Of a DNA stretch of 64,000 nt, positions 6,552 through 43,930 are shown one piece after another. Within the stretch, counting starts at the first letter, position 1. Every line of letters begins with the position of its first letter. Source of the stretch: a virus (lineage: Duplodnaviria; Heunggongvirae; Uroviricota; Caudoviricetes); IMG/VR virus record IMGVR_UViG_3300042400_000593; one strand, 5' to 3'. Both the position numbers and the translations under genes were made by a program. A model generated the notes under the pieces. It saw only the letters and a list, made by a program, of their open reading frames with translations, did no database searches and was not told the DNA's origin.

Positions 6552-7331
6552 TTAAATAGTAATGTATTGTAACTTAAACTTATCATGCATGTGTTCTCCA
6601 GGATATCCTCTAGAATTGTTTAGCATAACACATTCGTTAACAATTGGTGTTTTTGGATCGTGTTGATGTCCAAAGAAAGCATAATCAAAATTAGTTAATA
6701 AATGATCTAAATTAGATCCAAACAACCCATTCATAATAGGATCATTTTTATAATGATCAGCAGTTGTTTGCATCGATGGTGAATGATGAGTAATTAAAAT
6801 ATTGTTGTCATAACCAGCCTTGTCAACATGTTCCACCCATTTAACAAAGTGTTTATGACGTGCAAGTATGTCGGGTACACTAACACGAGCTTCGCCATTA
6901 AAAATAACTCGATAGTCATTTATTAATGTAGGTGCGCGTATTAATGTAAATGGATCTTCATTATTATAATCAGTCCATAATGTACCGCCTACAAACAAGT
7001 TATTATCGATGACTATATAGTCACCGTTGAGAATATGAAAGTTTTCGTATGGAAGTAATTCTTTCAATGTATCTATTGCTTCGTCAATCGACGAACCATA
7101 ATATTCATGATTTCCCATAACCATAAGCACATGCTTAAACTTATCAGTAACAGTATCAAAGAAATTTGTAATATCGTCACCATCACTTGTTCTAGTTGAT
7201 TCTGTAATTCTTTTAAATCTTGATACATTAAGTATATCTCCAGCTAAAATTAGCACATCTGCAGGTTCAATATCGTCTAAGATTAATGGTTCAAATTCAA
7301 AATGTAAATCTGATGCATAAGCAATTTTCAT
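6552..7331 (-). CDS. Calcineurin-like metallophosphoesterase
   Basis: SDLH, AGDI, GNHE, THH.P, GHQH. Confidence 0.9.
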   Translation of the reverse strand: MKIAYASDLHFEFEPLILDDIEPADVLILAGDILNVSRFKRITESTRTSDGDDITNFFDTVTDKFKHVLMVMGNHEYYGSSIDEAIDTLKELLPYENFHILNGDYIVIDNNLFVGGTLWTDYNNEDPFTLIRAPTLINDYRVIFNGEARVSVPDILARHKHFVKWVEHVDKAGYDNNILITHHSPSMQTTADHYKNDPIMNGLFGSNLDHLLTNFDYAFFGHQHDPKTPIVNECVMLNNSRGYPGEHMHDKFKLQYITI

Positions 7332-8497: not shown

Positions 8498-8959
8498 CTA
8501 TACATGCCAAATTTCAGCAAAGCCTTCTTCTTCAGATGGCATTTGAAAAATACTAGTCATCGATGCAATAACTGCATCGGATATGTTTTTGCCTGGACGA
8601 CTTGCTAATCGTCTTGTAAGTTCATCAGGGTCTGGTGTAGAAAATACTACAGCAATCTTTTTATAACATAGAAACAGTTTTAACTTGTTAGCTCGCGACT
8701 TAACTGTTAAATTAGTTTGATCCCATATTGCATCGGTTTCTGCCACATTTGTAGTGATTGCTCGTTTGTTTAATAGTTGAGTTGCAGTTTTAACATAATC
8801 ATCAAAAACTTCATTGTATGTTTTTCCAACTGACACTGCATACTCCTCTATAAACTTGTCTGAGCTAAGATACACACAATTCTTAGCCCAACTTTGATTG
8901 TTAACCCATGTAGACTTACCTGAACCAGGTACACCTACTAACATATAAAGTGTATTCAT
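8498..8959 (-). CDS. AAA_33 P-loop kinase (polynucleotide-kinase-like)
   Basis: GVPGSGKST Walker A, DQTNL, lid RLASR. Confidence 0.85.
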   Translation of the reverse strand: MNTLYMLVGVPGSGKSTWVNNQSWAKNCVYLSSDKFIEEYAVSVGKTYNEVFDDYVKTATQLLNKRAITTNVAETDAIWDQTNLTVKSRANKLKLFLCYKKIAVVFSTPDPDELTRRLASRPGKNISDAVIASMTSIFQMPSEEEGFAEIWHV

Positions 8960-10894: not shown

Positions 10895-12307
10895 TTAGAC
10901 CGCGTAGCGATCGTTCATAATTGTTTGTAACATAATTGCTTGTGGAGTAAAGTCATCCATATCAGCTGCAAGTACACTTGTCATAATACTTGGACTAAAT
11001 CCACTTACTAATGCTGCACCTTTTGCATTATACTTAACTGGCACATTGTCATGTGAGTTTAAGTTCCAAAATACAACTTGTGGTACTGTATACCCTGCAT
11101 CTTCATACTTACGACGAATCATTTTTATTGCAGAATCATCATGTGTTACACAAGCATCAAATTGCATATCAGATAATATTAAAAGTATCTGTGGCATTTC
11201 TTCAACAGGTACATTACCATTAACTGCAACTTCTAAAATCTTAGAAAAAGCTGCATGTAAGTTAGTGCCCATTTGCCAATCACTTTTTGACATCTGCGCA
11301 TACTTCTCAACTATATTACCTTTTAGTGTAACTAACTCTGGTTTAGAGCTAAATGTTAAGAATGTGTCTTTAAACTTACCAGCATTTTTATCTGCTAAGT
11401 ATATTCCTAAAGATAATGAAACATCCATACATGTAACAGTTTTGCTTTTACCTGCAGGACAGCCCATAGAACCTGATACATCAACTAATGGTAAAATACT
11501 TGCATCACCGACATAGTTAGGTAACGCGTCCCATTGTGCAATAATGTGTTGTTTTTCAAGTAGTGATGGTTGAGACCACCAACCACCTAACCCCTTAACA
11601 ATTTCATATGGATAGATCGCACCTGCGTTAACTTTAACAGTTGGATCATCACCTTTAACTAATTTAGCAATGTATTCAGCATACTTATCAGTGTGACGAG
11701 CAAATGCTTTTTTGTAGCGTGAAGAAGCTACAGATGGAACATGGCTAAAGTTAATAGCGTCCCATTGGTTAGCACACATTTGTGTTTCAACTACTTTAGT
11801 AAGTGAAACAAGTGTTTTGCGATAACGTTTTGGAGACCAACCTAAGTAGTTACGTAATTGTACAGCAGTATCTCCTTTACGTGGAATCCATTTAGCAGCA
11901 AGTCCATTTTGCGCTTCTAATGCATCTTTAATTAATCCAAATGCATAGTCCTTTAAGTTTTGTGTTTTGAACACAAGTAAGTCATCGTAGCGACCGAGTT
12001 CAGGAACTTTAGCTGCAAGTTTTTTAGCAGCATCTGGATCTGAGTTTTCAAGATGTAATAAAATATCTCTAAACAACTGACGTTCACCTGCACCGCCACG
12101 TACATCACGTACCCAAGCTGCAATACGTAATGCAAGATCTCTATCTTCTACATAAGCAGCAACAAACTCTGGGGTGATGTTTTTCCCACGTGATGCACCT
12201 GCCTTAAAGAAGAGATCAACTAATGCACTTGAGGTTGATTTACGTGCTTTCATACCGTTTTCAGTACGTGCTTCTTGATTTGCTATTGCTTCAATAAATG
12301 TTGACAT
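10895..12307 (-). CDS. DUF2828-type TROVE-like helical protein with C-terminal vWA domain (Ro60-related)
   Basis: RDVRGGAGER, GRYDDL, LAAKWIPR, VPS.A..RY..AF.RH, DVSGSM MIDAS, SDMQFD, FWNL. Confidence 0.85.
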   Translation of the reverse strand: MSTFIEAIANQEARTENGMKARKSTSSALVDLFFKAGASRGKNITPEFVAAYVEDRDLALRIAAWVRDVRGGAGERQLFRDILLHLENSDPDAAKKLAAKVPELGRYDDLLVFKTQNLKDYAFGLIKDALEAQNGLAAKWIPRKGDTAVQLRNYLGWSPKRYRKTLVSLTKVVETQMCANQWDAINFSHVPSVASSRYKKAFARHTDKYAEYIAKLVKGDDPTVKVNAGAIYPYEIVKGLGGWWSQPSLLEKQHIIAQWDALPNYVGDASILPLVDVSGSMGCPAGKSKTVTCMDVSLSLGIYLADKNAGKFKDTFLTFSSKPELVTLKGNIVEKYAQMSKSDWQMGTNLHAAFSKILEVAVNGNVPVEEMPQILLILSDMQFDACVTHDDSAIKMIRRKYEDAGYTVPQVVFWNLNSHDNVPVKYNAKGAALVSGFSPSIMTSVLAADMDDFTPQAIMLQTIMNDRYAV

Positions 12308-12435
12308 ATTATTCTCCTCAGTTTATGTTGTGTTTTGTGCTGTTAATAAACTTATTGTTTATGCTGTGTATTATACACTAAAAAAAGTATTTGTCAACTA
12401 TTTTTTAGAGAATAAAAAACCGCGTATTAAGCGGT

Positions 12436-12606
12436 TTATTCTTCTTCAAATTCAAATTCCCAACCTTCTGGCATGTTACTTCCTATCCAGTTAGCTTTTT
12501 CTAATGTAATCTCACCGGATGCTAATTTTTGTTGAGTTGTTGCAAAAATTTCTGCAAGATTATCTGGGTCAAGTGTAAAAAATACATCGTCGTCTTTATC
12601 GGACAT
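12436..12606 (-). CDS. Small acidic hypothetical protein (56 aa)
   Basis: MSDKDDDVFFTLDPD...EFEEE*; GAGG RBS. Confidence 0.6.
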   Translation of the reverse strand: MSDKDDDVFFTLDPDNLAEIFATTQQKLASGEITLEKANWIGSNMPEGWEFEFEEE

Positions 12607-12639
12607 AATATACCTCTATAAATTGTTAGTGGAAGGAAT

Positions 12640-12782
12640 AGCAGGATAGTTTGGGCGTTTAGTTGTTTATTTTACAGTCGAGCATTGCCCCTCGACTGAT
12701 GCTTGCACAATGACTGCTAGTGCAAGCTAATTAGAAAGCTAGTTCTTAGACCAGCAAATTCTGTTTGCTGAACCTATCCTAT
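12640..12782 (-). ncRNA. Y-RNA-like bulged-stem RNA, copy K
   Basis: 5' AGGATAG-GTT-CAGCAAA ... CTATCCTG 3' enclosing several hairpins. Confidence 0.6.
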
Positions 12783-12786
12783 TTTT

Positions 12787-12890
12787 AACGGTATAGTAGT
12801 TCTTACTTTTTTTATACTAGGTAAAGAGTCCTAGGGTTGTCTGTGACACCACAGACCAGCCATAGTTGTGTTGCAGTATCTATACCAAAC
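12787..12890 (-). ncRNA. Y-RNA-like bulged-stem RNA, copy L
   Basis: 5' GGTATAG-ATA-CTGCAAC ... CTATACCG 3'. Confidence 0.6.
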
Positions 12891-12892
12891 TG

Positions 12893-13501
12893 TTAACCAA
12901 CTTTCATTACAAAGTTGATTATAAATCTATTTTTATTAAATCTTGGATTTGATGAAGCATGAAATCTATCTGATTCAAAAATTACTGCTCTGTTTCGTTT
13001 AGGTGTGACACGTTGATTAAGTGTTAATTGGGTTGGTGGTTGTCCACTAACTGGATCCCAGAATTCATTAAACAAGAATGTATCGCCGTCTGAATCGTTT
13101 ACATAGTAAATCATACTGTAATGAGATCCAGTTTTATCATCAGTATGTGGAAAATTATAATGATCAGCTGATGCATTTGATTGTTTTAATAATAAGTTAA
13201 CTTTAACTCGATCAACAGAACAAATATCTTTTTCAACGTGTTCACCTGCAGTAAATACTACTGCTTTAAGTCTTTCAAAATAATCTTTAAACTTAGATTC
13301 TTCAGTATATGACGAATTTAATAATGTACAAACAAACTGTCCATAGTCTTCACAATTGTCATCTATAACAAATGATACATCACCGTATTGATCAGCTGAT
13401 GATGTTTTTTCTTTGTATTTGTACATTAATTCAGTTTCAAGTTCATACTGAATTTGATTAGCATACATTATTGGTAAAAAATTATCAATTACTTTAATCA
13501 T
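12893..13501 (-). CDS. 2OG-Fe(II) oxygenase
   Basis: PHTD...YYVNDSDGDT...PKRNRAVIFES..FHAS...R..INF. Confidence 0.85.
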   Translation of the reverse strand: MIKVIDNFLPIMYANQIQYELETELMYKYKEKTSSADQYGDVSFVIDDNCEDYGQFVCTLLNSSYTEESKFKDYFERLKAVVFTAGEHVEKDICSVDRVKVNLLLKQSNASADHYNFPHTDDKTGSHYSMIYYVNDSDGDTFLFNEFWDPVSGQPPTQLTLNQRVTPKRNRAVIFESDRFHASSNPRFNKNRFIINFVMKVG

Positions 13502-13776
13502 TAACCGGTACGTTGAATTAAATGCCAACCAAACTGAGTTTGTACTGGTTTACTAAAGTTACCAATGCCTAACGAAAATGCTGCTTCTTCAAATGGTTGA
13601 ACCATTTGTCCTCGACCAAATGCGCCTAAGTTTCCACCACTTTGACCACTTGGACATTTACTATTGGTTAATGCTAACGCACCGAAATCTGCACCTTCGT
13701 TAACAATTTTATTGTATAAGTCATTTGCTTGTTCTTCAGTTTCTACTAAAATGTGTTTTGCTTGAATTGATGTCAT
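13501..13776 (-). CDS. ppiC: Parvulin peptidyl-prolyl isomerase
   Basis: AKHILV, SKCPSGQSGGNLGAF.RGQMV.PFEEAAF, VQTQFGWHLI. Confidence 0.95.
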   Translation of the reverse strand: MTSIQAKHILVETEEQANDLYNKIVNEGADFGALALTNSKCPSGQSGGNLGAFGRGQMVQPFEEAAFSLGIGNFSKPVQTQFGWHLIQRTG

Positions 13777-13787
13777 ATTATTTCTCT

Positions 13788-14357
13788 TTAAAATTCGTAA
13801 TATAAGTTAAAAGTATTAATACCGGTTTCTAATTGATTATTTTGAAAGTCAGTTTTCTCATTATATATAGGAGTTGATGCCATTTCTTGTAATGAGCTAA
13901 CTTCATATGTCCACCACTTGCTAGTTTGACGATATGGAGTTCCGTAGGAGTCAAATGGAATCTCAATAGTTGATCCGCTGTTTTCGTATGCAAATCTTGG
14001 AATTACAAAATAATAAAACTTATCAAAAATTCTATCATAAACTTGTACACGTAATCCGCCAGTTTTATTTTTAAAAGAACTTATAGGAGCACTATAAGTA
14101 GTATTAAAGTTTCGACGTCTAACTGTAACCATTTTGCAATCAGAACCATCGGATAAATCTGCAAAATCTTTTGATATTACAGTTTGTCCTCCAAGATTTG
14201 CTACTGCATATTCTAATGCAGTTGATACTTGAATTAACCCGTAACTTTGCAAAATACCAAAAGTTTTTTTGCACATTTCTTCCCACTGTGGAAGAAACTC
14301 TTTAATATTATCAAGATGTGCATTTTCTAACTCAAGATTTTCTAACTTATTTGCCAT
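13788..14357 (-). CDS. Hypothetical protein, possible nuclease; paralogue of 41627-42247
   Basis: Shared KNKTG.(L/I)R...Y...FY...IP...(I/V)EI..D...KW pattern. Confidence 0.6.
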   Translation of the reverse strand: MANKLENLELENAHLDNIKEFLPQWEEMCKKTFGILQSYGLIQVSTALEYAVANLGGQTVISKDFADLSDGSDCKMVTVRRRNFNTTYSAPISSFKNKTGGLRVQVYDRIFDKFYYFVIPRFAYENSGSTIEIPFDSYGTPYRQTSKWWTYEVSSLQEMASTPIYNEKTDFQNNQLETGINTFNLYYEF

Positions 14358-14436
14358 ATGTTGCCTATATGTAATAGTTAATTGGAGCGGGAGACTAGTG
14401 TTATCTAGTATCCCTAAGTTATGTATAAATAATAGC

Positions 14437-15189
14437 ATGAATCTATTATTTTGTCAATGCTGTAATGCATCTTTTATTCCAAAAGCAGGATCTCTTGGAA
14501 AGTTTTGTTCTTTATCATGCTCGTCTCGGCATAATAACAAACTTAGTACTGAAAAGAAAATTTCTAAATACATGTTAAATCCTCTAGCATGCAACTGTTG
14601 TAATAAATCGTTAGCATATGAAAAACGTAAAAATAAATTTTGTTCTAATCGATGCGCTGCTATAGTTTCTAATAAGGTTGAACGAAAACGTGGACCAACA
14701 CCTAAAGAAAAACTACTATATTCAAAAGTAAAATTTTATTTATGTACACATACTAACAAGTGGTATGTAAATCGAAATCCTAACGGTACTGTGCGTCGTT
14801 CATCGCCATATATTAAATCCGAAAAAGAAAAATATTACGCTGCATCAAGATTTAAATTTAACGTGTATCACTTTCCTAACGAGTTTAATTTGTCTTTAAT
14901 CGAAACTCACGGGTGGTATACGTGCCCAGGTAAAAAACGATCAACCTTCCCTAAAAACTTATTAGGTGTAAGCAGAGATCACATTATATCAGTTAGCTAC
15001 GGATTTGCAAATAATATCGATCCTGCTATTATATCGCATCCTGCTAATTGTAGAATTGTTCTACAATCAGATAATAAGAAAAAACATTCTACTTGTGATA
15101 TAACTTTATCTGAACTATTACAAAAAATTATTATATGGGATCAAAAATACAGTGAGCGACGTACCGGGCTCGAACCGGTCTTGTTCTAA
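14437..15189 (+). CDS. HNH-type homing endonuclease with zinc ribbons
   Basis: Repeated CxxC/FCSxxC motifs, SRDHIIS...HPANC; TATAAATA at 14424-14431; 3' end runs antisense into tRNA-Gly. Confidence 0.75.
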   Translation: MNLLFCQCCNASFIPKAGSLGKFCSLSCSSRHNNKLSTEKKISKYMLNPLACNCCNKSLAYEKRKNKFCSNRCAAIVSNKVERKRGPTPKEKLLYSKVKFYLCTHTNKWYVNRNPNGTVRRSSPYIKSEKEKYYAASRFKFNVYHFPNEFNLSLIETHGWYTCPGKKRSTFPKNLLGVSRDHIISVSYGFANNIDPAIISHPANCRIVLQSDNKKKHSTCDITLSELLQKIIIWDQKYSERRTGLEPVLF

Positions 15190-15228
15190 CTTGGAAGGAT
15201 AGTGCCATACCTACTAGGCGAACGTCGC
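15155..15228 (-). tRNA. tRNA-Gly(UCC), no encoded CCA
   Basis: Acceptor GCGACGT/ACGTCGC, anticodon loop CTTCCAA, T arm ACCGG TTCGAGC CCGGT. Confidence 0.85.
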
Positions 15229-15251
15229 TCACTGTACTCTTTTTCTAAAAT

Positions 15252-15311
15252 AACTGGATGCATTTTAAATTTCATGGAAAGAAAGTTTAAAGTTGCAGTT
15301 AGCATCCAAAA
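15252..15311 (-). ncRNA. Y-RNA-like bulged-stem RNA, copy A (short)
   Basis: GGATGC-TAA-CTGCAAC ... GCATCCAG. Confidence 0.55.
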
Positions 15312-15331
15312 CTGTTGTATGCAAATACTAT

Positions 15332-15386
15332 AACTGAATGCATTAAATTCACCATTGAAAGTAATAATTGCTGTTAGCATTCAAAA
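15332..15386 (-). ncRNA. Y-RNA-like bulged-stem RNA, copy B (short)
   Basis: GAATGC-TAA-CAGCAAT ... GCATTCAG. Confidence 0.55.
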
Positions 15387-15409
15387 ACTATAGTATTCGC
15401 GTACTATGT

Positions 15410-15486
15410 TGGTCGGGATAACACGATTCGAACATGCGACCTGACCGCCCCAAACGGCCCGCTCTACCAAACTGAGCTACATCCCG
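15410..15486 (-). tRNA. tRNA-Pro(UGG)
   Basis: CGGGATGTAGCTCAGTTTGGTAGAGC...TTTGGGG...GTTCGAATC...CCCGACCA. Confidence 0.95.
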
Positions 15487-15574
15487 GTAATTTGTTTAAA
15501 CTGTTGTTTAACTAATGCGTGTATTATACATTGTTTTATGTATTTGTCAACTATTAATTAAACCTTTTTGTATT

Positions 15575-15659
15575 TGGAGCCAGGTAGGAGACTCGAACTC
15601 CTGATGGGTTTCCCCGACGGATTACAAATCCGTTGCAATGGCCACTATGCGAACCTGGC
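15575..15659 (-). tRNA. tRNA with UGU (Thr) anticodon and long variable arm
   Basis: GCCAGGT/ACCTGGC acceptor, ACGGA-TTTGTAA-TCCGT anticodon arm, CGGGGAAACCCA variable arm, CCA end. Confidence 0.85.
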
Positions 15660-15763
15660 AAATATAACTATTACTAAAACACTTGATATTTAGTGCTTTA
15701 GTAATAGCTATCATTTAAAAATGACAACTACTACACTTTCGTTAATGGAGAAAGTTTTCTGTT

Positions 15764-16067
15764 GTTTAATGGTGTGCTTTTACGCTAAAGACCTGTCTGC
15801 GACATCCTAATTAACTCTCGGACATGTTAAGTTTAACTATTAGGAAAAACATCCTTAACATTAGGGGGTACCTCCCTCATCCGTTTAATATAGCAATCAC
15901 TTTAGACTCGTAACAGCCATTAAGGCATATTGCCGGACTCTATATTAACGCAGTTACATACACTTACAGGTTGCTTTCGCACTGCCGTAAGTTTAAGTAT
16001 CACTTTAGCAAAGTTTGCGGGTCACTCTTTAAATGATGGCTGCTTATAAGCCTACATCCCAATAAAC
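15764..16067 (-). ncRNA. Structured RNA containing a 23S rRNA GTPase-associated-centre (H42-H44) mimic split by a 238-nt insertion
   Basis: GGATGTAGGCTTATAAGCAGCCATCATTTAAAGAGTG ... CGTAAAAGCACAC, closed by GTTTATTGG/CCATTAAAC. Confidence 0.7.
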
Positions 16068-16391
16068 TTATGTTAATGCAATCAATCTATCAATGTTTTG
16101 TTCCATTAATAGCTTGATTCTATCTTTATCAAAATTGTTATTTTGTAAACAGTTTTGATGTTGTAATCTAAACAAAGTTTCTTTTGCTTCGTCATATATT
16201 GATAATGCCCATATCTGCGTACCACAAAACCCACTTGCAGCTAACTTGATCATTTGCCATCCGTCACCTTTGATAAACGAATGTTTTCGTTCAAGTTCAG
16301 GACCAACATATTTTCTTAGAAACTCATGTGTATCTGATATTCTATTTTCATAGTCTTCATTATACATTACATTTCCATATATTACTAACAT
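16068..16391 (-). CDS. Hypothetical protein
   Basis: 107-aa ORF; (I)YDEAKETLFRLQH resembles the small-protein family at 27700-28805. Confidence 0.65.
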   Translation of the reverse strand: MLVIYGNVMYNEDYENRISDTHEFLRKYVGPELERKHSFIKGDGWQMIKLAASGFCGTQIWALSIYDEAKETLFRLQHQNCLQNNNFDKDRIKLLMEQNIDRLIALT

Positions 16392-16445
16392 TAGAAACCT
16401 TTGTTTAAATTGTTAAATGGGGTAACTGCCTTTACGGTAGCATCC

Positions 16446-17096
16446 TTATTTGTTATATGTTATTTTTCTACCTTTATACCATCCTTCTGGAATATTAGTA
16501 GTTTTAGGAATGGATTTATTTTCAATTCCGTTTGTAATCCACATTTTACCATATTGAGAATTTTTATTTCCTTTTTGATGAATAGAACTTTTTTCACCAA
16601 TAAGTTTCTTAGTATGTTCAGAATGTGTTTTACCATTAAATGTACCAGACCTACCTTTTAATGAATCTGATATTTTTTTAGATATTAACGCAGCAAAAAC
16701 TGGATCTTCTTTTTTGCGATTTTCAAGAGTAATTTTCCCTCGTGCAAAGTTATCTTTTACATTAGAAGTATATCCATTATTTCCATACAAATTCTTTTTA
16801 TTGTTGTTTATATAATCAAAGCCGCCACGACCGCCTATTTTAATATTATAAGTTCTAGTACTAGCAACAAATGATTCGTTTACTATTTCAGCTTCTTTAT
16901 CATACATTTCTTTTGAATTATTAAAAACATGCAATATTTGTTTACTAAACTTTTCAATACCGTATTTTATTTTAGCTCGATTTAAAATCTTACCTGATCC
17001 CATATAATCATCATTTATGTCTAATGTTTTATGACAACCTATATAGATTTTATTATTAATGATATTTGTAATTTTGTATATTATGTAATAAGTCAT
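16446..17096 (-). CDS. GIY-YIG homing endonuclease (Seg-like) with NUMOD3 motif
   Basis: IIYKITN..NNKIYIG.H...YMGSG; KTHSEHTKKLIG. Confidence 0.9.
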   Translation of the reverse strand: MTYYIIYKITNIINNKIYIGCHKTLDINDDYMGSGKILNRAKIKYGIEKFSKQILHVFNNSKEMYDKEAEIVNESFVASTRTYNIKIGGRGGFDYINNNKKNLYGNNGYTSNVKDNFARGKITLENRKKEDPVFAALISKKISDSLKGRSGTFNGKTHSEHTKKLIGEKSSIHQKGNKNSQYGKMWITNGIENKSIPKTTNIPEGWYKGRKITYNK

Positions 17097-17209
17097 GCAT
17101 TTAGTGTTAGTAAGGTGTTAACACCTTACTAATCCAATTATTCTTTTAGGATAATGATTTAACGTGCGGAACTTTTATAAAGCATCCTAAACCACACAAA
17201 CATACTAAT

Positions 17210-17284
17210 TGGCGTCGCTACGGGGAATTGAACCCCGGTTGCAAGGATGAAAACCTTGTGTCCTAACCACTAGACGATAGCGAC
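17210..17284 (-). tRNA. tRNA-Glu(UUC)
   Basis: GTCGCTA/TAGCGAC acceptor, CAAGG-TTTTCAT-CCTTG, CCA. Confidence 0.95.
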
Positions 17285-17290
17285 ATATAT

Positions 17291-17374
17291 TGGTGGAGAT
17301 CCCTGGATTCGAACCAGGTGCCCAGAGGGCATGGATTTACAGTCCACTGCAGTCGCCAATGCCGCTCGACCTCC
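17291..17374 (-). tRNA. tRNA-Tyr(GUA)
   Basis: GGAGGTC/GATCTCC acceptor, CTGTAAA loop, long variable arm, CCA. Confidence 0.95.
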
Positions 17375-17386
17375 GACGTTCTTTAT

Positions 17387-17620
17387 TTATACAAGTTCTG
17401 CATGATTAGTTGTAGTTGTGACTAAATCTAACACACCTATTTTTTTAGCACGATTTTCTAAAAGTACAATTCTGTTACGAATTTTATTTTTATCACGTCC
17501 ACGACCTGCTTTTTCAAGTGCTGTCTTAGCTTGAGCTAAGTTTAGCAATTTAAGTCTAGGTCTGCCATTACGTGTTACTTTTGGATCTGCAGTTCTATTT
17601 GCTTTACTGATGTTCGCCAT
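17387..17620 (-). CDS. Small basic hypothetical protein
   Basis: 77-aa Lys/Arg-rich ORF with GGAG RBS. Confidence 0.7.
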   Translation of the reverse strand: MANISKANRTADPKVTRNGRPRLKLLNLAQAKTALEKAGRGRDKNKIRNRIVLLENRAKKIGVLDLVTTTTNHAELV

Positions 17621-17786
17621 CTTGTGTTCCTTTATCTAAATTTTCGTTATTAGCATGACTGCCGTGTGAGTTTGAAATGATTTCTGTTTTGGGTTCTTCT
17701 TTCTTACCAAAAATCTTATCCCAGTTATCATCAAACTGAGATTTGCTAACGCTTAATGGTCTTGCTCTACTGCCTTTACCTGCCAT
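17604..17786 (-). CDS. Small hypothetical protein
   Basis: MAGKGSRARP...FDDNWDKIFGKK; AAGGAG RBS. Confidence 0.7.
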   Translation of the reverse strand: MAGKGSRARPLSVSKSQFDDNWDKIFGKKEEPKTEIISNSHGSHANNENLDKGTQDGEHQ

Positions 17787-17800
17787 AATAATCTCCTTTT

Positions 17801-17908
17801 GTTATATTAGAACACACTACAATAACGGAGTCGAACCGTATACTAAATTGCGATTTAGTAGTGAACCGCACTACGTTGATCAGACGCTGTAGTATGCTTT
17901 AATATAAC
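17801..17908 (-). ncRNA. tRNA-like RNA with extended acceptor stem (copy J)
   Basis: GTTATATTA/TAATATAAC closing stem, T arm ACGG TTCGACT CCGT, variable-arm-like and anticodon-like hairpins, no CCA. Confidence 0.5.
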
Positions 17909-17914
17909 AACTTT

Positions 17915-18004
17915 AACAGAATAGCTTGCTCACCATTGAGCATTATCGCTAAGATAGCAATAATGGAATCGAACCATTAAATAATTTGCTGTGACTATTC
18001 TAAA
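17915..18004 (-). ncRNA. YrlA-like RNA, copy C (permuted tRNA module)
   Basis: AGAATAG-TCA-CAGCAAA, T arm AATGG TTCGATT CCATT, closed acceptor ATTGCTA-tct-TAGCGAT, D arm GCTC AATGGT GAGC, 3' CTATTCTG. Confidence 0.75.
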
Positions 18005-18007
18005 ATT

Positions 18008-18072
18008 AACAGGATAGAATTTACTTTTAGATTAAGAGTCCAATGTAAATTGTTGCTGTTACTATCCTAAAA
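18008..18072 (-). ncRNA. Y-RNA-like bulged-stem RNA, copy D (short)
   Basis: AGGATAG-TAA-CAGCAAC ... CTATCCTG. Confidence 0.6.
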
Positions 18073-18075
18073 CTG

Positions 18076-18288
18076 TTAAGTCCAAACCAATCTTGCTATT
18101 GTAGCTTGCTTTGGATCTTTAAATTGAAATATTATTATGTGAGTAGTGTCTGTTCGTCCACAATGATATTTATAATCAACTTCGTGTACTAAATTGCGTT
18201 CCTTGCACCATTTTGATATTTCAAATGCTCTTTTTACATCCCCTGTAAATGTAGCAAATCCTTCTGCATGTGCGTAATCTGTATTCAT
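18076..18288 (-). CDS. Small hypothetical protein inside the RNA array
   Basis: 70 aa; C-terminal FKDPKQATIARLVW motif shared with the 27700-28805 family. Confidence 0.65.
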   Translation of the reverse strand: MNTDYAHAEGFATFTGDVKRAFEISKWCKERNLVHEVDYKYHCGRTDTTHIIIFQFKDPKQATIARLVWT

Positions 18289-18305
18289 AGTTACCTTATG
18301 TGTTT

Positions 18306-18433
18306 ATCAGAATGCATTTTATTTACCAGTGCGTCTACTCTTTCGCCAAATGCAATATTGCATTGCAGGACTTGCACCTGCACATCGTTAGATACCGGTT
18401 TCCATTAAATTATGATGCAGTTAGCATTCTAAA
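18306..18433 (-). ncRNA. YrlA-like RNA, copy E (permuted tRNA module)
   Basis: AGAATGC-TAA-CTGCATC, T arm GCAGG TGCAAGT CCTGC, closed acceptor AATGCA-atat-TGCATT, Leu-like D arm TGGCGAAAGAGTAGACGCA. Confidence 0.75.
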
Positions 18434-18436
18434 TAT

Positions 18437-18560
18437 AGCAGGATCCGTTTAATATACGCGCTCTAACCGTTAAGCTAACTGTTATTACTAACAGTGTAGG
18501 ATTCGAACCTACATCACGTGCTTCAAATGCAAATTATTTTATGCTGTTTAGATCCTAAAA
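18437..18560 (-). ncRNA. YrlA-like RNA, copy F (permuted tRNA module)
   Basis: AGGATC-TAAA-CAGCATA, T arm GTAGG TTCGAAT CCTAC, closed acceptor ACTGTTA-gtaa-TAACAGT, D arm TAGCTTAACGGTTAGAGC. Confidence 0.8.
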
Positions 18561-18570
18561 CTTTTAAAAC

Positions 18571-18813
18571 TTATTAAAAAGAACCTTGTAAAGTTTTGGT
18601 TTCATCGAGCTGATGCGGTCAACGTTTTACAGACGCCCTTTACTAGTTCCGCCAACATGACTACCATAGTAACTAGAATCAAAGCACTGTAATTGCCTGA
18701 AACTCTCACTCATTACAACTTGCAGTCTATAACTACCCACTGTGCCCCTTCCGGAGAACACGTTGTGCTTGCTTGCGCAAAAGTTTTTTCAGTAGTTGGG
18801 TTCTTTTTAATAA
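18571..18813 (-). ncRNA. Unassigned structured RNA (~240 nt)
   Basis: 15-bp terminal inverted repeat TTATTAAAAAGAACC/GGTTCTTTTTAATAA enclosing several hairpins; no ORF. Confidence 0.45.
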
Positions 18814-18820
18814 ACTTTTT

Positions 18821-18902
18821 AACAGGTTCCACATAGTGTTACAAATATGTACGGAACATCTTTTCCGCACTTCTGCAATGTATTGCTGTAGGAAACCTAA
18901 AA
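18821..18902 (-). ncRNA. Y-RNA-like bulged-stem RNA, copy G
   Basis: AGGTTTCC-TA-CAGCAAT ... GGAACCTG. Confidence 0.6.
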
Positions 18903-18910
18903 AACTATTT

Positions 18911-18970
18911 AACAGAATGTATTTTAGTCATATTCAAAAATGATGTTAAGTTGCTGTTAACATTCTAAAA
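18911..18970 (-). ncRNA. Y-RNA-like bulged-stem RNA, copy H (short)
   Basis: AGAATG-TTAA-CAGCAAC ... CATTCTG. Confidence 0.6.
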
Positions 18971-19032
18971 CTATTGTACTACGTAACTAACTGCTTGTCA
19001 ACACTTTTTTTTTAATTTTTTTAAGGAGTTTT

Positions 19033-19150
19033 AACAGGTTTCACAATTTTGATCAATTACTCTACCAACTGAGCTAATGTTACAAGTAACATGCAGGAAT
19101 CGAACCTGCGACACACTGAGATATTAAATTGTTGCTGTAGGAAACCTATT
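19033..19150 (-). ncRNA. YrlA-like RNA, copy I (permuted tRNA module)
   Basis: AGGTTTCC-TA-CAGCAAC, T arm GCAGG TTCGATT CCTGC, closed acceptor ATGTTAC-tt-GTAACAT, D arm TAGCTCAGTTGGTAGAG. Confidence 0.8.
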
Positions 19151-19465: not shown

Positions 19466-19531
19466 GTTGTGTACCTTTGTTGTTTAGTATGTGCATATTA
19501 TACACTAATAAAATTGTTTGTCAAGTGTTTT

Positions 19532-20027: not shown

Positions 20028-20177
20028 TTAACATCTCCACATTACTACTGGCCAAAAGACCATGCGGTGTGTCCATGACACTAAACTTCCAGCATCATCA
20101 CTGTTATCAAATGACAACGTTGCAAAAAGTGCACCTGCTATGTAGTACGCTATTGCTATCATTATTAAAAATTCCAT
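20028..20177 (-). CDS. Small membrane protein (49 aa), paralogue of 19791-20024
   Basis: MEFLIMIAIAYYIAGALFATL...VFWPVVMWRC*. Confidence 0.55.
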   Translation of the reverse strand: MEFLIMIAIAYYIAGALFATLSFDNSDDAGSLVSWTHRMVFWPVVMWRC

Positions 20178-21280
20178 TACATTTCCTCTTGGGCTAAAAA
20201 CCATGTACGTGCTACATATTTAACTCTTGTTATTACATCTTTGATTTCTAGATGGCTAGCAACAAGTGTATCAGTTTCTTCTTTAACAACATCGTCTGCA
20301 ATCCATTTTAAGAATACAGGAGTGCTTTTAGGTTCAATACTGATGTTGTTTACTTTTAAGTATTCTAAACCTTGAGTAAGTCTAGATTCAGTAACTACTG
20401 TATCAGCAAACTCGTTAATGGAGTTAACTTTTTCTACATCAACACTTGCTAGTGTTTTAACTTTAGATGAACTGTGTTTTTCACCTTTAACTTTAAACAT
20501 AAATCGTGATTGTTCATAACCAGGAGTAACACATTTCCAAACAATACCTTCACCTACACCTTCAACACCAAAGTGTTGAGCAATTGGACATTGTTGTTCT
20601 ACTGCAACAGTAAGATCCGCAAGCTTGTTTTGCGCAAGCTCAGGTTCGTTAAAGTTGATATCCATTGTGTATGTTTGGAAGTCATAAATTGTAAATAAAT
20701 TTTCAGGCCATGCTTCGGTATTAAAACCTGCAATTTCTTTAGCATACGCAATAGTATGCTTAAACTCAGTTGGAGTAAAATAAACGCGTTGAACATCTTC
20801 GTCTTCATTTTTACCAGCTGACCATGCAACAATGCCAAAGATAATAAACATTTTAGGAACATTACTAATTCCTACACCTTTTTGAACACCTTGCCCGCAC
20901 CATTCGCCAAAGATAGAATAATGTGTTAAGTTGTAATCAACTTTGTGATGTGCAGCTGAAGTTAATAAGTTAATAAACGTTTCTTTATGTTGTTGTGCAT
21001 ATTTTGCCCAACCATAATTGTCATCATCTATTGTTAAAATACGTTCACGTGATTGCGCCCAAAATTCATTATATTTAGGAAACTCGCAAGCAACGCTAGC
21101 ATTAGTGCCATGTGCCTTAACAGAACCTTCAAACGTTAAAGTTGGCATAGGTGCAAATGGATCAAAGGTTGGTGCACCATTGTCATCTAACCCTTTAAAG
21201 GTAGCACGACTTTTAACTTCTCTAACTACTTGTCTAAATTGATTAATGCTGGGCCATGATTTGTGTACTTGTTTTGACAT
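20177..21280 (-). CDS. RNA ligase 2 (Rnl2 family)
   Basis: Motif I SVKAHGTN, FGEWCG, GEGIVW, FKVKGEKH. Confidence 0.9.
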   Translation of the reverse strand: MSKQVHKSWPSINQFRQVVREVKSRATFKGLDDNGAPTFDPFAPMPTLTFEGSVKAHGTNASVACEFPKYNEFWAQSRERILTIDDDNYGWAKYAQQHKETFINLLTSAAHHKVDYNLTHYSIFGEWCGQGVQKGVGISNVPKMFIIFGIVAWSAGKNEDEDVQRVYFTPTEFKHTIAYAKEIAGFNTEAWPENLFTIYDFQTYTMDINFNEPELAQNKLADLTVAVEQQCPIAQHFGVEGVGEGIVWKCVTPGYEQSRFMFKVKGEKHSSSKVKTLASVDVEKVNSINEFADTVVTESRLTQGLEYLKVNNISIEPKSTPVFLKWIADDVVKEETDTLVASHLEIKDVITRVKYVARTWFLAQEEM

Positions 21281-23097: not shown

Positions 23098-23775
23098 TCA
23101 AGGTTTAAGTTTGCAATTATTTCCGTGATATCGTTTCATGCCATTAGATTTTCCTAATTTATTGCAATAAGGGCATATAATTATCTCCATCGGCGATGTT
23201 TGAAAAACTTTACCTTTTCTTACAGCACTCATTTTATTGCGAGTCTCTATAGATGGAGATTTGCCTTTATTAGGAGGTATCCTTCCTTTATTTGAATTGC
23301 TGATTTTAGATTTGTGTTCTTCTGATAAAGGTTTTCCTTTTTTAGCTACAGATAATTTAGATTTATACTCTATAGACATGTTTTCTTTAGCTTTACTAAT
23401 TTTACTTCGAGTTTCGGATGTATGAGTTTTTCCTGTATTTGCTATAGCAATTTTAGATTTGTGTTCTTCTGATAAAGGTTTTCCTTTATGCATTACACTA
23501 ACTGCTTTAGCAAATTCTTTTCTAATCCAACCATAACTTTTATTAGTAGCGCGACCAACTGACATCATATGTGCTGCTTTAATTAATTTATGATTATTTG
23601 GATATATCTTTATAAGTACTTGATGTGCTACATAATGAGCTTCAGGTGTTAACTTTACTATATTAGTTGCATGATTAGTACCTCCCATACATTTGGGAAT
23701 GATATGATGCTTTTCTGTATAATCTGCAATCATATCTTTTGCAGTTAATTGTTCGTATATTTTTTGATAATTCAT
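23098..23775 (-). CDS. HNH homing endonuclease with NUMOD3 repeats
   Basis: EKHHIIPKCMGG...N+V.LT.EAHY.AH; repeated KPLSEEHKSKI. Confidence 0.88.
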   Translation of the reverse strand: MNYQKIYEQLTAKDMIADYTEKHHIIPKCMGGTNHATNIVKLTPEAHYVAHQVLIKIYPNNHKLIKAAHMMSVGRATNKSYGWIRKEFAKAVSVMHKGKPLSEEHKSKIAIANTGKTHTSETRSKISKAKENMSIEYKSKLSVAKKGKPLSEEHKSKISNSNKGRIPPNKGKSPSIETRNKMSAVRKGKVFQTSPMEIIICPYCNKLGKSNGMKRYHGNNCKLKP

Positions 23776-25173: not shown

Positions 25174-26367
25174 ATGAAAATACAAGAAATTATAAGCGAA
25201 GCAATATCAGGTGCTCACTGGATACACGGATTGCACAATGGGTTAAATGATATTTTAGAACAACCGTTAGGACTTACATTTAACTTAGAAACTATAAATG
25301 GATTTAATGCCATTGCAGTATACCTTAAAGATATGTCCGACGGCAGGATATGTAGTTTTTATGAGAAAATGCAACCTAGTGATATTATTTACATGTTAGA
25401 AGAGATAGTAAAGATAGCACATTATGTTATACAGCAGAAATATGCTAAAGTGTGCGCGGATGTAAGTGGAACAAACTTTTCTCATATTCAAATTCTACCT
25501 CAGTCTAATAATCCAGGAGCCCTCGCCTCGGCTGGTTATGACTATGTAACATTCTATGAAACTGATAAGAATGCTTTCCAACATCGAGATATAGATATGC
25601 TAAAAGACTTGTTATATAGTACAGAAGCAATGACTGATGTTAACAGAGGATGGAGTAATGCTGAACAAAAGAATCTATATGTGCCTGTGATAACTGATAT
25701 GTTTCAAATCGAACCTGCATTTAGAAATTTGAAACTAGGTGATTTTAGTTTAGCTGAATTCTTCTTAGACACTAAAAACATAGATACTATGGTTCACGAA
25801 TTAGTACATATTAGACAACACGCACCTCAATCTAGATATAAAACTAAACGAGTATTTGATAAAGATACTAAACAGCACAAATTGGTTACTAAACAAGGCA
25901 CTGAATTTAGAAGTAAAGTAGAGCCAAATCAAGAAAAGTTTTATAATGCAATTAGAGATTTAGATAAGTCGCCTGAAAACTATAAAATATATAGTTCGTC
26001 GTTACAAGAAATACCAGCACATGCGCATGATGCAGCAGTTAGCGTTATACGTCATTTAGATTTTGCATGGGGCGGTTCGGTTGATGAATATGGCAGAGAC
26101 GTGTCACATTTAAAATCTCAAGTAAAAGCACTTAAATTGATTATTGCTAATTTGTCTAATGGACCAACCGCGTTAAAAGATGTTTATGGTCACCCGATTA
26201 AAATTAGAAGATTTGAATATTTCAGTAAGACATTTAATCATCCTAACGATAAAAAGTTATATCCGGTATATAAAAAATTTGTAAAAATAATGAGTCAAGA
26301 ATTAATCAATTATTACAATTATTGGAATGAAAAACTTATTAACCTTAGTAAATCAAATGGTCAATAA
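25174..26367 (+). CDS. HExxH putative metallopeptidase with MKIQEIISE leader
   Basis: MVHELVHIRQ and downstream QEIPAHAHD. Confidence 0.6.
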   Translation: MKIQEIISEAISGAHWIHGLHNGLNDILEQPLGLTFNLETINGFNAIAVYLKDMSDGRICSFYEKMQPSDIIYMLEEIVKIAHYVIQQKYAKVCADVSGTNFSHIQILPQSNNPGALASAGYDYVTFYETDKNAFQHRDIDMLKDLLYSTEAMTDVNRGWSNAEQKNLYVPVITDMFQIEPAFRNLKLGDFSLAEFFLDTKNIDTMVHELVHIRQHAPQSRYKTKRVFDKDTKQHKLVTKQGTEFRSKVEPNQEKFYNAIRDLDKSPENYKIYSSSLQEIPAHAHDAAVSVIRHLDFAWGGSVDEYGRDVSHLKSQVKALKLIIANLSNGPTALKDVYGHPIKIRRFEYFSKTFNHPNDKKLYPVYKKFVKIMSQELINYYNYWNEKLINLSKSNGQ

Positions 26368-26394
26368 AAAAGCTGCCCTAAGGCAGCTTTAGTT

Positions 26395-26740
26395 GTATTT
26401 TGGTTAATAAGGCATACATGCCCCAGAGGGGTAGGTTATTAAGCTACCATGTCAGCTGCTTCCAAAGAGAAGTCAACTGTCATATACTCGAATTTAGATG
26501 CTTTTGCGTCTATAAGTTTTGCGCTGTTTAGGACAGTCACCTCACCTGTTGCCGTCTCCATTATCTCACCAAGTCGAATCCAATTCATCCCCATTATAAA
26601 ACACACTATCACTTCCCATTTGAGGGGCAGGAAGTCTACGGCTGTTGCCCCACTCCGATACCTCTAATGTGTTTTATGGTGGAGATGTGGGGTTTCGAAC
26701 CCCAGTGTTTGATGCCGTCACTTTGAAGGAATTACAACAA
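26395..26740 (-). ncRNA. ssrA: Circularly permuted (two-piece) tmRNA
   Basis: Acceptor piece ...GGGGTTCGAAACCCCACATCTCCACCA (3' end 26677) precedes coding piece GGGGATGAATTGGATTCGAC (5' end 26592); G3-U70 pair; tag ORF 26507-26439. Confidence 0.85.
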
Positions 26741-26901
26741 TAATAAACACACTAAAATATTTAATGTGCTTATTATTGTTAACTTGTGCATATTATAACA
26801 TAAAAATAATATTTGTCAAGTGTTAATGATAAATAAAAATGTAGTTCACGATGCGCTAACATCTAACTACTCTAAACATTTTTAACTTTTAAGGAACAAC
26901 A

Positions 26902-43226: not shown

Positions 43227-43252
43227 ACTGTATTTATCAGTATTTGCGCACT

Positions 43253-43930
43253 CTAAATCTCAGGGAATAAACACTCATGAACAAAGCGAGTAACGTCTTC
43301 TTCGTTTAAGCCAAGTGCAGCCATTACTCGCGGTGTATGCGGGATTTGTTTTTGTTGTATTGCATAGTAGTTTTGTGCTTCTACAGTGCTTTTAACTGTG
43401 TTATTAGTGCTTGCTACGTTAAATAAGTAGTGTTTGCTAGTAAGATCTATAATGCTGTGTATTTGCGCTATTTCACTGTCTTTTTGAATATTGCTTGCTG
43501 CAATCATATGTGGGGAAAAGATCTTTTGTCCCCACTCTGGAATATCTCTAACTTTATCCCATTTTAACAACCCAGCCTCTGATCCAAAAAAATCTATCAT
43601 TGGATGATTAGAATTACCAGCCGGACTGTAGTCATGGAAAAAACCAGTTATCTTATTGCGACCTGCAACAACATCACAACCAAAGATAGGTGCAGGATTA
43701 TGGATATGTGGGAAAATGCAGCAATGCATCATCCACAATCCGTTTGAATCACTTGCGTCTACTATATTAAGATGTGCGCGACGATAAGACTTACTAGACC
43801 AAATTCTATTAATCCAACCGTTATAATTAAAACGATCAATACCAGGTTCTGCTATTTCAGTTCCTGAACTGTTAAATCGATCTATAAGTAAGTCTTGTAT
43901 TTTAACTAACTGAGATTTTAGATCACTCAT
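43253..43930 (-). CDS. pcyX: Ferredoxin-dependent bilin reductase, PcyX/PcyA-like
   Basis: RRAHL.IVD...LWMMHCCIFP...PIFG.DVVAG..KITG.FHDYSP, P.WG..IFS..MIAA. Confidence 0.8.
   Translation of the reverse strand: MSDLKSQLVKIQDLLIDRFNSSGTEIAEPGIDRFNYNGWINRIWSSKSYRRAHLNIVDASDSNGLWMMHCCIFPHIHNPAPIFGCDVVAGRNKITGFFHDYSPAGNSNHPMIDFFGSEAGLLKWDKVRDIPEWGQKIFSPHMIAASNIQKDSEIAQIHSIIDLTSKHYLFNVASTNNTVKSTVEAQNYYAIQQKQIPHTPRVMAALGLNEEDVTRFVHECLFPEI

Follow-up and report, generated by a model that had tools for sequence, protein, structure and literature searches.

Small RNAs with a common handle and tRNA-like bodies in a jumbo phage: likely partners of a DUF2828/DUF7788 protein with a predicted Ro60 fold

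Ro60 and the Y RNAs form a classic ribonucleoprotein whose role in bacteria and phages is poorly understood; in Salmonella, an operon encodes Ro60 (rsr), YrlA and the RtcB RNA ligase. Here we analyze a 64,000-nt stretch (the window) of the virus record IMGVR_UViG_3300042400_000593, in which eleven small RNA elements that share one terminal structure, which we call the handle, are interleaved with tRNA genes upstream of a gene coding for a 470-amino-acid (aa) DUF2828/DUF7788 protein. We consider it likely that these elements are the partner RNAs of this protein, and that the protein is a divergent structural homologue of Ro60.

In the systems described so far, Ro60 holds a Y RNA by its stem, leaving the opposite end of the RNA to tether partners or to gate the Ro60 ring; the YrlA RNAs of bacteria and phages (Rfam RF02553) mimic tRNA and are encoded adjoining Ro60 (PMC4201824, PMC12135203). 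Ro60 contacts the motif GGUCCGA in animal Y RNAs, and GNCGAAN0-1G or CGAA in those of bacteria and phages (PMC4201824, PMC12135203). The Ro60 of Thermus phage phiLo binds two adjacent Y-like RNAs (Yrl1 and Yrl2) together with the host PNPase (PMC12135203; PDB 9KOP, 9L5Y). The locus studied here resembles these systems in the predicted ring and vWA fold of its protein, with a MIDAS motif, and in having RNA genes near the protein gene on the same strand, often several of them (0.3-6.8 kb upstream here, usually adjacent in relatives). It also resembles them in RNA layout, with a stem closing the 5' and 3' ends, an unpaired conserved motif beside it, and a variable module at the other end.

A family of small RNAs with one handle and several bodies

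The window belongs to an uncultured jumbo phage, whose 372,016-bp IMG/VR record carries direct terminal repeats and was judged 100% complete. A megablast search of the region against 50,697 phage records returned zero matches, indicating that this phage has no close cultured relative. On the minus strand of the window, between positions 12639 and 19147, eleven elements share a 7-bp terminal helix, a 3-nt spacer, the motif C(A/U)GCA(A/U) and a 3' G-N-U-A tail (Table 1).

We scanned both strands of the whole genome for a 7-bp arm (G-U pairs allowed) followed by 2-4 nt, C(A/T)GCA(A/T), up to 170 nt of interior, the complementary arm and G(A/C/T)TA; a looser first rule, with a 6-bp arm and without the tail, was set aside as unspecific. 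The scan of 372,016 bp recovered all eleven elements, all on the minus strand. About 18 other matches were scattered on both strands and mutually dissimilar, and mononucleotide shuffles yielded about 4 matches; the rest of the genome holds nothing comparable to the eleven. The simpler pattern AGRWWNNNNNCWGCAW matched 9 times in the window as compared to 1.6 expected, with none of 100 shuffles reaching 9, and 8 of the 9 matches fell within the array. All eleven elements had been located by a first-pass annotation of the sequence, to within 1-4 nt of the positions given here, and the compensatory helix changes that it quoted are indeed seen across the copies. It had described a spacer of 2-4 nt; the C(A/T)GCA(A/T) motif does follow the spacer, but its length is exactly 3 nt in all eleven copies, the wider range having come from counting shorter helices.

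In the minimum-free-energy folds of all eleven elements the terminal helix is closed and NNN-CAGCAA is unpaired. A catalogue of 177 elements from this and related genomes gave the consensus (U)UUU, AGGAUNN, NUW and CAGCAA for the 5' side, and NNAUCCU followed by GUU for the 3' side. Within the motif NUWCAGCAA, C, G, C and A are invariant in the catalogue, partly through the search rule. The outer handle pairs (A-G-R with Y-C-U) are conserved, as is the 3' tail G-U(-U).

A covariance model built from the short elements (R1) was searched against the 64-kb window, and recovered elements 7, 9, 11 and 1, on which it had not been trained, with E-values of 1e-5 to 3e-3; nothing else in the 64 kb was convincing. 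We rejected as members a match at 27613-27646 (E = 0.26) and another at 43209-43258 on the minus strand (E = 0.06). In the latter, the 3' end (CATTCTGTTA) resembles that of a handle and a helix of 6 bp closes the structure, but CGCAAA replaces CAGCAA; it is either a chance match or a relic. At the gathering threshold, Rfam reported only tRNAs and a transfer-messenger RNA (tmRNA) and none of the eleven elements; at E ≤ 10, YrlA was the only family to account for elements, with the model of the dictyostelid Class I RNAs matching weakly. The elements constitute one family of small non-coding RNAs, with covariation and with linkage to a gene, as detailed below; the mature RNA ends given here are putative.

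The bodies enclosed by the handle were described by the first-pass annotation as modular and unrelated to one another. Modular they are; yet they are not simply unrelated, as most of them mimic parts of a tRNA. In elements 5, 7, 8 and 11, but not in the other seven, the body is of an elbow type, running from a T arm through an acceptor stem closed by a small loop to a D arm. In a 1.3-kb search, the Rfam YrlA model aligned over its full length to elements 11 and 8, and by their folds elements 5 and 7 have the same layout in a compact or diverged form. The comparison with YrlA proposed in the first pass brought out two matches to the full model, both of which score below its gathering threshold (Table 1). 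Full-length YrlA matches were also found in elements of three related loci (L038, L035 and L048) and of Mycobacterium phage Halena.

Most of the short elements (3, 4, 6 and 10) and their relatives are of a second type, in which an inner 5-bp stem carries a 7-nt loop of the form C-U-NNN-A-A. We aligned 44 distinct short elements of 53-72 nt from this and related genomes. The loop columns contained C in 31/44, U in 40/44, and, after three variable positions, A in 40/44 and again A in 40/44; the first of the variable positions was U in 29, G in 10, C in 4 and A in 1. An anticodon loop bears this signature, down to the scarcity of A in the wobble position. The inner stem, which was not used in selecting the elements, is 85% paired; each of its five pairs shows substitutions in both partners, and the presence of G-U pairs points to RNA of this strand.

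The covariation implied by the compensatory changes was also seen in this alignment: the whole structure scored 0.677 versus 0.188 in shuffled alignments, none of 500 of which reached it. When the pairing partner was shifted by 1-3 columns, pairing fell to 34-47%, as compared to 94% in the true register. Folded alone, 26 of the 44 bodies gave a 7-nt loop with U as its second base and a purine as its sixth, on a stem of 4 bp or more, whereas shuffled bodies did so 0.27 times on average and twice at most. Among the four short elements of the window, a clean 7-nt loop appears in the energy fold for only 3 and 6.

Thirteen different triplets occupy the NNN positions of the anticodon-arm bodies. 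In pairs of elements that are 80-99% identical the triplet differs at 27% of sites, as compared to 5-12% for the rest of the loop, the stems and the handle, and several near-identical pairs differ in the triplet alone. In element 3 of the window, for example, the triplet is UCC, versus UUU in a 95%-identical counterpart in related locus L006. The triplet is a mutational hot spot.

A third arrangement was found in one element of locus L038, where the handle encloses a D arm, an anticodon arm and a T arm but no proper acceptor stem. Since the same handle is thus joined at different points of the tRNA shape, it appears to be a generic grip. Not one of the eleven elements was called by ARAGORN or the Rfam tRNA model, which reported five tRNAs in the region; only fragments of the Rfam tRNA model matched elements 7 and 8 (E = 0.3-0.6).

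The DUF2828/DUF7788 protein and its linkage to the RNAs

The 470-aa protein matches Pfam DUF2828 (1.4e-24) and DUF7788 (2e-47), and the phage protein family phrog_850, labelled 'RNA-binding protein' (1e-141). Across 70 homologues (42-61% identity) its MIDAS residues D276, S278, S280, T348 and D380 never vary; the basic residues R76, K139, R143 and R163 are conserved as well. An AlphaFold2 model generated from these homologues had a pLDDT of 92 and a pTM of 0.90. When this model was compared with the PDB using Foldseek, the top 13 matches were Ro60 chains (from phage phiLo, Xenopus, human and Deinococcus), with E-values of 2.5e-8 to 8e-6 over more than 500 columns, and the matches below them were vWA domains only. 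VIA-align superimposed residues 9-452 of the model on residues 12-537 of Xenopus Ro60 (1yvp_A) with a Z score of 21.3 and a root-mean-square deviation of 4.2 Å over 415 residues; phage phiLo Ro60 scored 17.8 and the best vWA-only match 10, with all Ro60 entries above the vWA-only ones. Among Swiss-Prot models the matches were Ro60, Tetrahymena telomerase p80 and TEP1, all of them TROVE proteins. In the model, the DUF2828/DUF7788 protein therefore has the Ro60 fold over its whole length, so that the first-pass description of a TROVE-like, Ro60-type protein holds for the fold, although not for the Pfam TROVE domain (see below).

The protein family is large, with 6,160 cluster representatives at E ≤ 0.001 (clusters of 50% identity). 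Using tblastn we found the protein in 705 cultured phage records, where it is labelled as hypothetical, 'RNA-binding protein', 'DUF2828' or 'Ro-like RNA binding protein'. In one relative (locus L139) the gene is in two pieces about 930 bp apart, at C1:30211-30615 and 31548-32564 (matching residues 12-148 and 135-470 of the query), which suggests an intron or the insertion of a homing endonuclease.

In the window, elements 1 and 2 lie upstream of the DUF2828 gene in the same orientation, as the first-pass annotation had noted, with a 56-aa open reading frame (ORF), a terminator-like hairpin and a promoter in between. To see how general this arrangement is, we examined 67 viral loci encoding relatives of the protein at 55-97% identity. 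Nearly every locus for which upstream DNA was available had 1-5 elements in tandem, usually with 20-150 nt between their end and the DUF2828 start codon, and the strict scan gave 115 matches on the gene strand versus 23 on the opposite strand. The inner helix pairs vary compensatorily between these loci (AGGATCG, AGGATGG, AGGTTAG, GGGATCA, AGGTAAG, AGAGTAG and others), and the U-rich 5' flank of the elements is conserved within this lineage.

In the converse survey, IMG/VR was scanned with a 19-nt pattern for the 5' part of the RNA; of the 80 loci found, 31 had a DUF2828 gene in the stretch that was fetched. Ten records had complete elements but no gene in that stretch; seven of these have the gene elsewhere, and the other three are fragments covering 3-20%. 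Where there was a bare match to the pattern only, the gene was present in none of five records. Searched from either side, the co-occurrence of RNA and gene foreseen in the first pass thus extends across very distant phages. We also examined 80 records of bacteria and archaea, many being metagenome bins whose DNA may come from phages or prophages: 69 of the 80 carry elements on the gene strand, mostly directly upstream of the gene (195 matches, versus 53 on the opposite strand); one cellular example with adjoining elements is a Woesearchaeota contig.

Cultured phages follow the same arrangement with variations in position. Three elements lie upstream of the gene in Synechococcus phage BUCT-ZZ01 and in Listeria phage LP-125, the latter with RtcB and an RNA ligase nearby; Bacillus phage Chewbecca has three, among and after tRNAs, and Vibrio phage D482 has one. 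Elements are downstream of the gene in Felixounavirus and in phage Halena, which has three, one of them a YrlA match of 39.8 bits. In Salmonella phage SP116 and E. coli phage Bas63 the elements, four of them in Bas63, occupy gaps between the tRNA genes of a cluster that directly follows the gene. Across these lineages the sequence of the stem varies, and the 3-nt spacer and CAGCAA stay constant.

Bas63 (Escherichia phage JohannRWettstein; locus L195, MZ501086) links the family to a phenotype, since its gp130 counters the Ppl defence system (PhageMaP preprint, PMC11482910). That 2024 preprint noted the Ro60-like structure of gp130 and guessed that Y RNAs are present among the adjoining 'tRNA genes', but did not identify the RNAs (PMC11482910). 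We found bas63_0130 to be an orthologue of the window protein (37% identical over the full length, E = 1e-97) that is directly upstream of the tRNA cluster, with handle elements at L195 22073-22139, 22240-22297, 22695-22762 and 22782-22907 (about 82072-82906 of record MZ501086), one of them YrlA-like. The annotated genes bas63_0137 and bas63_0138 (L195 22749-23023, opposite strand) overlap the last two of these elements, and are therefore probably not genes.

Competing explanations, possible function and the surrounding island

Several observations count against the elements being partner RNAs of a Ro60-like protein. Pfam TROVE (PF05731) matched neither the protein (E ≤ 0.01) nor anything in the whole genome (E ≤ 1). 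A phmmer search of the protein against PDB sequences found no match, and a profile of the 70 homologues reached Ro60/TROVE chains at E of about 0.3 and in the vWA part only; the link to Ro60 therefore rests on the fold. The handle has CAGCAA after its 7-bp stem and 3 nt, with no CGAA-type motif there, unlike Y RNAs, and the best YrlA score, 39 bits, is far under the gathering score of 69 bits. The 100% pairing of the terminal helix in the catalogue is partly imposed by the search rule, and since the aligned sequences are related, the shuffle counts overstate significance and should not be read as probabilities. Most elements of the window are 0.3-7 kb from the gene, with a terminator and a promoter separating the nearest ones from it, and in Aeromonas phage Aeh1 the strict rule found no element within 5 kb of the gene. 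Finally, gp130 of Bas63 by itself, supplied on a plasmid or by T7, is enough to restore plaquing on Ppl (PMC11482910), so that either the anti-Ppl activity is not the purpose of the RNAs or host RNAs substitute for them.

The distance from the gene also lends itself to another explanation, namely that the handle is a processing or stability tag on RNAs from tRNA-array transcripts, read by a host or phage RNase or some other protein, with DUF2828 merely in the same island. The interleaving of the elements with tRNA genes, their probable excision from polycistronic transcripts, the conserved U-rich flank and the kilobases that separate many of them from the gene would all fit. However, in most relatives, including mycobacteriophages, Listeria phages and the Woesearchaeota contig, the elements abut the start of the gene or follow its stop on the same strand; the gene is present in records with complete elements and absent from those with the pattern only; and the protein has the predicted fold of a known binder of such RNA. 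We therefore regard a tag unrelated to DUF2828 as unlikely, although tagging and partnership are compatible with each other. The proximity seen in most relatives, with 1-5 same-strand elements that stop 20-150 nt short of the start codon, could instead mean that the elements are cis-acting leaders, with the protein binding handles in its own 5' untranslated region and so regulating itself, for which ribosomal-protein leaders provide a precedent. This seems to us quite improbable: a terminator-like hairpin and a separate consensus promoter stand between the nearest elements and the gene, nine elements lie 3-7 kb away, those of Felixounavirus and Halena are downstream, and neither the diverse tRNA-mimic bodies nor the triplet hot spot would have a purpose in simple autoregulation.

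That T arms, D arms and anticodon-like loops occur in the bodies, and that an RNA ligase gene is nearby, would also be expected if the elements were working tRNAs, permuted or armless, that mature by cutting, joining and CCA addition. But a loop of 2-4 nt caps their acceptor stems, from which discriminator and CCA are missing, the elbow bodies lack an anticodon arm and the short bodies lack a T or D arm, ARAGORN and the Rfam tRNA model call no element in the window, and the handle is attached where the anticodon stem would be in some elements and where the acceptor would be in others, all of which makes this very improbable. Repeats acting at the DNA level, such as recombination sites, homing-endonuclease targets or miniature mobile elements, might be suspected from the homing-endonuclease genes of the region and from a terminal helix nearly devoid of G-U pairs. 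Such repeats would hardly show a strict strand bias relative to the gene, inner-stem G-U pairs that become A-C mismatches on the other strand, a conserved motif that is unpaired and asymmetric, bodies that differ wholly between copies, and a helix at which the expected start of a consensus promoter falls, and we find this explanation scarcely credible.

If the elements are partner RNAs, the Ro60/Y RNA precedent suggests that the protein would hold the handle, the constant part, and stabilize the RNA, while the variable body would display its tRNA part to proteins that recognize tRNA. The targets could be host defence nucleases that cleave tRNA, with the RNA acting as a decoy, or enzymes of RNA repair or decay, with the RNA acting as a tether; either way the translation apparatus would be kept working during infection. 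The position within a tRNA array, the repair-enzyme neighbours and the fast-changing triplet together point to the tRNA pool as the field of action. By analogy, the particle probably displays tRNA-part mimics for counter-defence or for tRNA surveillance. A more specific and more doubtful idea, which we put forward tentatively, is a programmable display in which the triplet is rapidly swapped to match the host tRNA under attack, the RNAs serving as decoys or baits that protect or help repair the tRNA pool. Such RNAs would form a second layer beside phage-encoded tRNAs.

The array lies in an RNA-centred island on the minus strand at 2.7-27 kb of the window. The island holds five tRNA genes and one tmRNA, the RNA-enzyme genes of Table 1 (an RNA ligase, a kinase of the AAA_33 type and a metallophosphoesterase), and genes for GroES, ClpP, a DNA ligase, a parvulin, a 2OG-Fe oxygenase and homing endonucleases. 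Together, the ligase, kinase and phosphoesterase that flank the array look like a kinase/phosphatase/ligase set for RNA repair. Judging from the promoter at 18973-19001, the expected +1 is the first base of element 10 or the adjoining base; the other elements are probably cut from longer transcripts, and the promoters in the window suggest transcription by the host polymerase.

Several other features of the island were recorded. The tmRNA (26348-26769, minus strand) is of the permuted, two-piece type (Rfam tmRNA_permuted, 101.9 bits), and Synechococcus phage BUCT-ZZ01 likewise has a permuted tmRNA (L194 1737-2137). The sole sizeable ORF on the opposite strand of the island codes for 306 aa (14269-15189, plus strand) and has no Pfam or PHROG match; its 3' end overlaps tRNA-Gly (15154-15228). 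On the minus strand, the non-coding stretch 17805-17905, between element 5 and a 60-aa ORF, contains a T-arm-like hairpin (ACGGTTCGACTCCGT) and a possible acceptor pairing (ACTACAG/TTGTAGT), lacks the CAGCAA handle, and was called as a tRNA by neither ARAGORN nor Rfam. The roughly 240 nt between elements 9 and 8 (18560-18820, minus strand) are richer in G+C, have no notable ORF and no Rfam match at E ≤ 10, and may be another structured RNA. Some 360 nt between a 107-aa ORF and tRNA-Thr (15700-16065, minus strand) are likewise ORF-free and G+C-richer, without an Rfam match at E ≤ 10. After tRNA-Glu, the stretch 17137-17195 (minus strand) contains TTTAGGATGC ... ATTATCCT without CAGCAA, and may be a decayed twelfth element.

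Table 1. Coordinates of the RNA elements, genes and predicted signals in the window. Helix arms are given as 5' arm/3' arm; R1 E, E-value with the R1 covariance model ("untrained", element not used to build it).
Feature	Position	Strand	Description
Element 1	12639-12780	minus	142 nt; AGGATAG/CTATCCT; multi-hairpin body; R1 E 2.7e-3, untrained
Element 2	12786-12886	minus	101 nt; GGTATAG/CTATACC; core CTGCAA; several hairpins
Element 3	15251-15308	minus	58 nt; TGGATGC/GCATCCA; stem, 7-nt loop UUUCCAU, triplet UCC; R1 E 3e-11
Element 4	15331-15383	minus	53 nt; TGAATGC/GCATTCA; weak stem, loop CUUUCAA by alignment; R1 E 2.3e-10
Element 5	17914-18001	minus	88 nt; AGAATAG/CTATTCT; compact permuted tRNA-like body (T arm, closed acceptor stem, D arm)
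Element 6	18007-18068	minus	62 nt; AGGATAG/CTATCCT; 5-bp stem, loop CUCUUAA, triplet CUU; R1 E 2.2e-13
Element 7	18305-18430	minus	126 nt; AGAATGC/GCATTCT; core CTGCAT; diverged permuted tRNA-like body; R1 E 1.3e-5, untrained
Element 8	18436-18556	minus	121 nt; AGGATCT/GGATCCT; YrlA-type permuted tRNA-like body; Rfam YrlA 32.3 bits (gathering score 69), E 8e-5, model 1-114
Element 9	18820-18898	minus	79 nt; AGGTTTC/GGAACCT (one U-G pair); long hairpin; R1 E 2.9e-5, untrained
Element 10	18910-18966	minus	57 nt; AGAATGT/ACATTCT; small hairpin body; R1 E 4.9e-12
Element 11	19032-19147	minus	116 nt; AGGTTTC/GAAACCT; second 7-bp helix, then YrlA-type permuted tRNA-like body; Rfam YrlA 38.9 bits (gathering score 69), E 1e-6, model 1-114; R1 E 8.8e-4, untrained
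DUF2828/DUF7788 gene	10895-12307	minus	470 aa; predicted HEAT-type repeat ring and vWA domain with complete MIDAS motif
Sigma-70 consensus promoter (12/12)	12370-12397	minus	precedes DUF2828 gene
Terminator-like hairpin with U run	12417-12437	minus	between 56-aa ORF and DUF2828 promoter
Sigma-70 consensus promoter (12/12)	15523-15550	minus	precedes tRNA-Pro, elements 4 and 3, tRNA-Gly
Sigma-70-like promoter (11/12)	18973-19001	minus	precedes element 10
Sigma-70 consensus promoter (12/12)	19497-19524	minus	precedes GroES; read-through would reach element 11
Calcineurin-like phosphoesterase	6552-7331	minus	flanks array
AAA_33 P-loop kinase	8498-8959	minus	flanks array
RNA ligase (PF09414)	20177-21280	minus	flanks array
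GIY-YIG homing endonuclease gene	16446-17096		
HNH/NUMOD3 homing endonuclease gene	23098-23775		

Comparison with Ro60, Y RNAs and other known systems

That the protein is Ro-like is already present in public annotation ('Ro-like RNA binding protein'; phrog_850, 'RNA-binding protein'). For the handle RNAs we found no description in Rfam 15 or in the literature searched, where none of the mentions of 'DUF2828' that we found concern RNA. An undescribed family of probable partner RNAs for a very common phage protein is well grounded by computation. What the window adds is one of the larger arrays (eleven copies), with both types of mimic side by side and with promoters.

The DUF2828 branch, which is represented in 705 cultured phage records and comprises over 6,000 clusters (50% identity), far exceeds the canonical set of phage Ro60 proteins; among its carriers are workhorse phages of E. 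coli, Salmonella, Listeria, Staphylococcus and Mycobacterium. With the simple handle rule, dozens of RNA genes that have gone unrecognised in phage tRNA clusters can be annotated, some of which at present lie beneath doubtful small ORFs. Bas63 with E. coli offers a tractable system in which the protein already has a counter-defence phenotype. The anticodon-arm mimics with their fast-changing triplet suggest a phage strategy against tRNA-targeting immunity, a very active field.

Phage tRNA arrays are the nearest parallel to the genomic setting: they counter tRNA-cleaving defences, which are widespread (PMC10264068, PMC11464382, PMC11555353). Our elements are interleaved with tRNA genes, and anticodon loops vary in both, so that the selective pressure is likely the same, namely host nucleases aimed at anticodon loops. 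The arrays differ in consisting of working tRNAs that replace cleaved host ones, whereas handle RNAs carry a handle of the type held by a protein and, since they lack the parts for charging and decoding, would have to act as mimics.

A second resemblance, in architecture and size, is between the short elements and the Class I RNAs of dictyostelid social amoebae (RF01414), which are 42-65 nt long and have a short covarying end stem, a conserved unpaired 11-nt motif immediately following its 5' strand, and a variable remainder (PMC7919456). Their motif has T, C, C, A and A at positions 3, 6, 9, 10 and 11, and their 3' end reads C-U-G-U, the C pairing with a conserved 5' G (PMC7919456). Compared by description and not by alignment, CAGCAA fits positions 6-11, with the conserved U at position 4 here versus 3, and the 3' end of the handle is Y-C-U-G-U(-U), its C pairing with the invariant G at position 2. 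On the window elements RF01414 gave 12.8-18.9 bits (E = 1.9-7.7, in very short searches), as compared to a gathering score of 41.5. Class I RNAs are eukaryotic and reported absent outside Dictyostelia, and the only direct binder named for them there is the RRM protein Rnp1A (PMC7919456). The resemblance is a lead, and homology is not implied. DUF2828 proteins do occur in plants, which leaves a possibility that the pairing of handle and protein extends to eukaryotes; were it true that dictyostelids encode DUF2828, the orphan Class I RNAs would be its eukaryotic branch.

The closest comparison remains that with Ro60 and the Y RNAs. Beyond the likenesses named at the outset, some elements contain the permuted tRNA mimic of YrlA (T arm, closed acceptor stem, D arm), and RNA repair genes (RtcB, ligase, kinase) lie in the neighbourhood; the Salmonella operon of rsr, YrlA and RtcB is paralleled by the ligase, kinase and phosphoesterase here and by RtcB and RNA ligase in LP-125. 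The differences are that the protein is a DUF2828/DUF7788 protein that Pfam TROVE does not recognise, that many bodies are anticodon-arm mimics or other folds, which are unreported for Y RNAs in the literature searched, and that copy number here is up to eleven. As Chen et al. (2014) surveyed only genomes annotated with a TROVE protein (PMC4201824), the handle family lies outside that survey. Pfam TROVE, the Ro60-contact motif and the YrlA threshold all fail here, which sets the system apart from membership in the Ro60/Y RNA family proper; by analogy, the DUF2828 protein and its handle RNAs most likely work as Ro60 does with Y RNAs.

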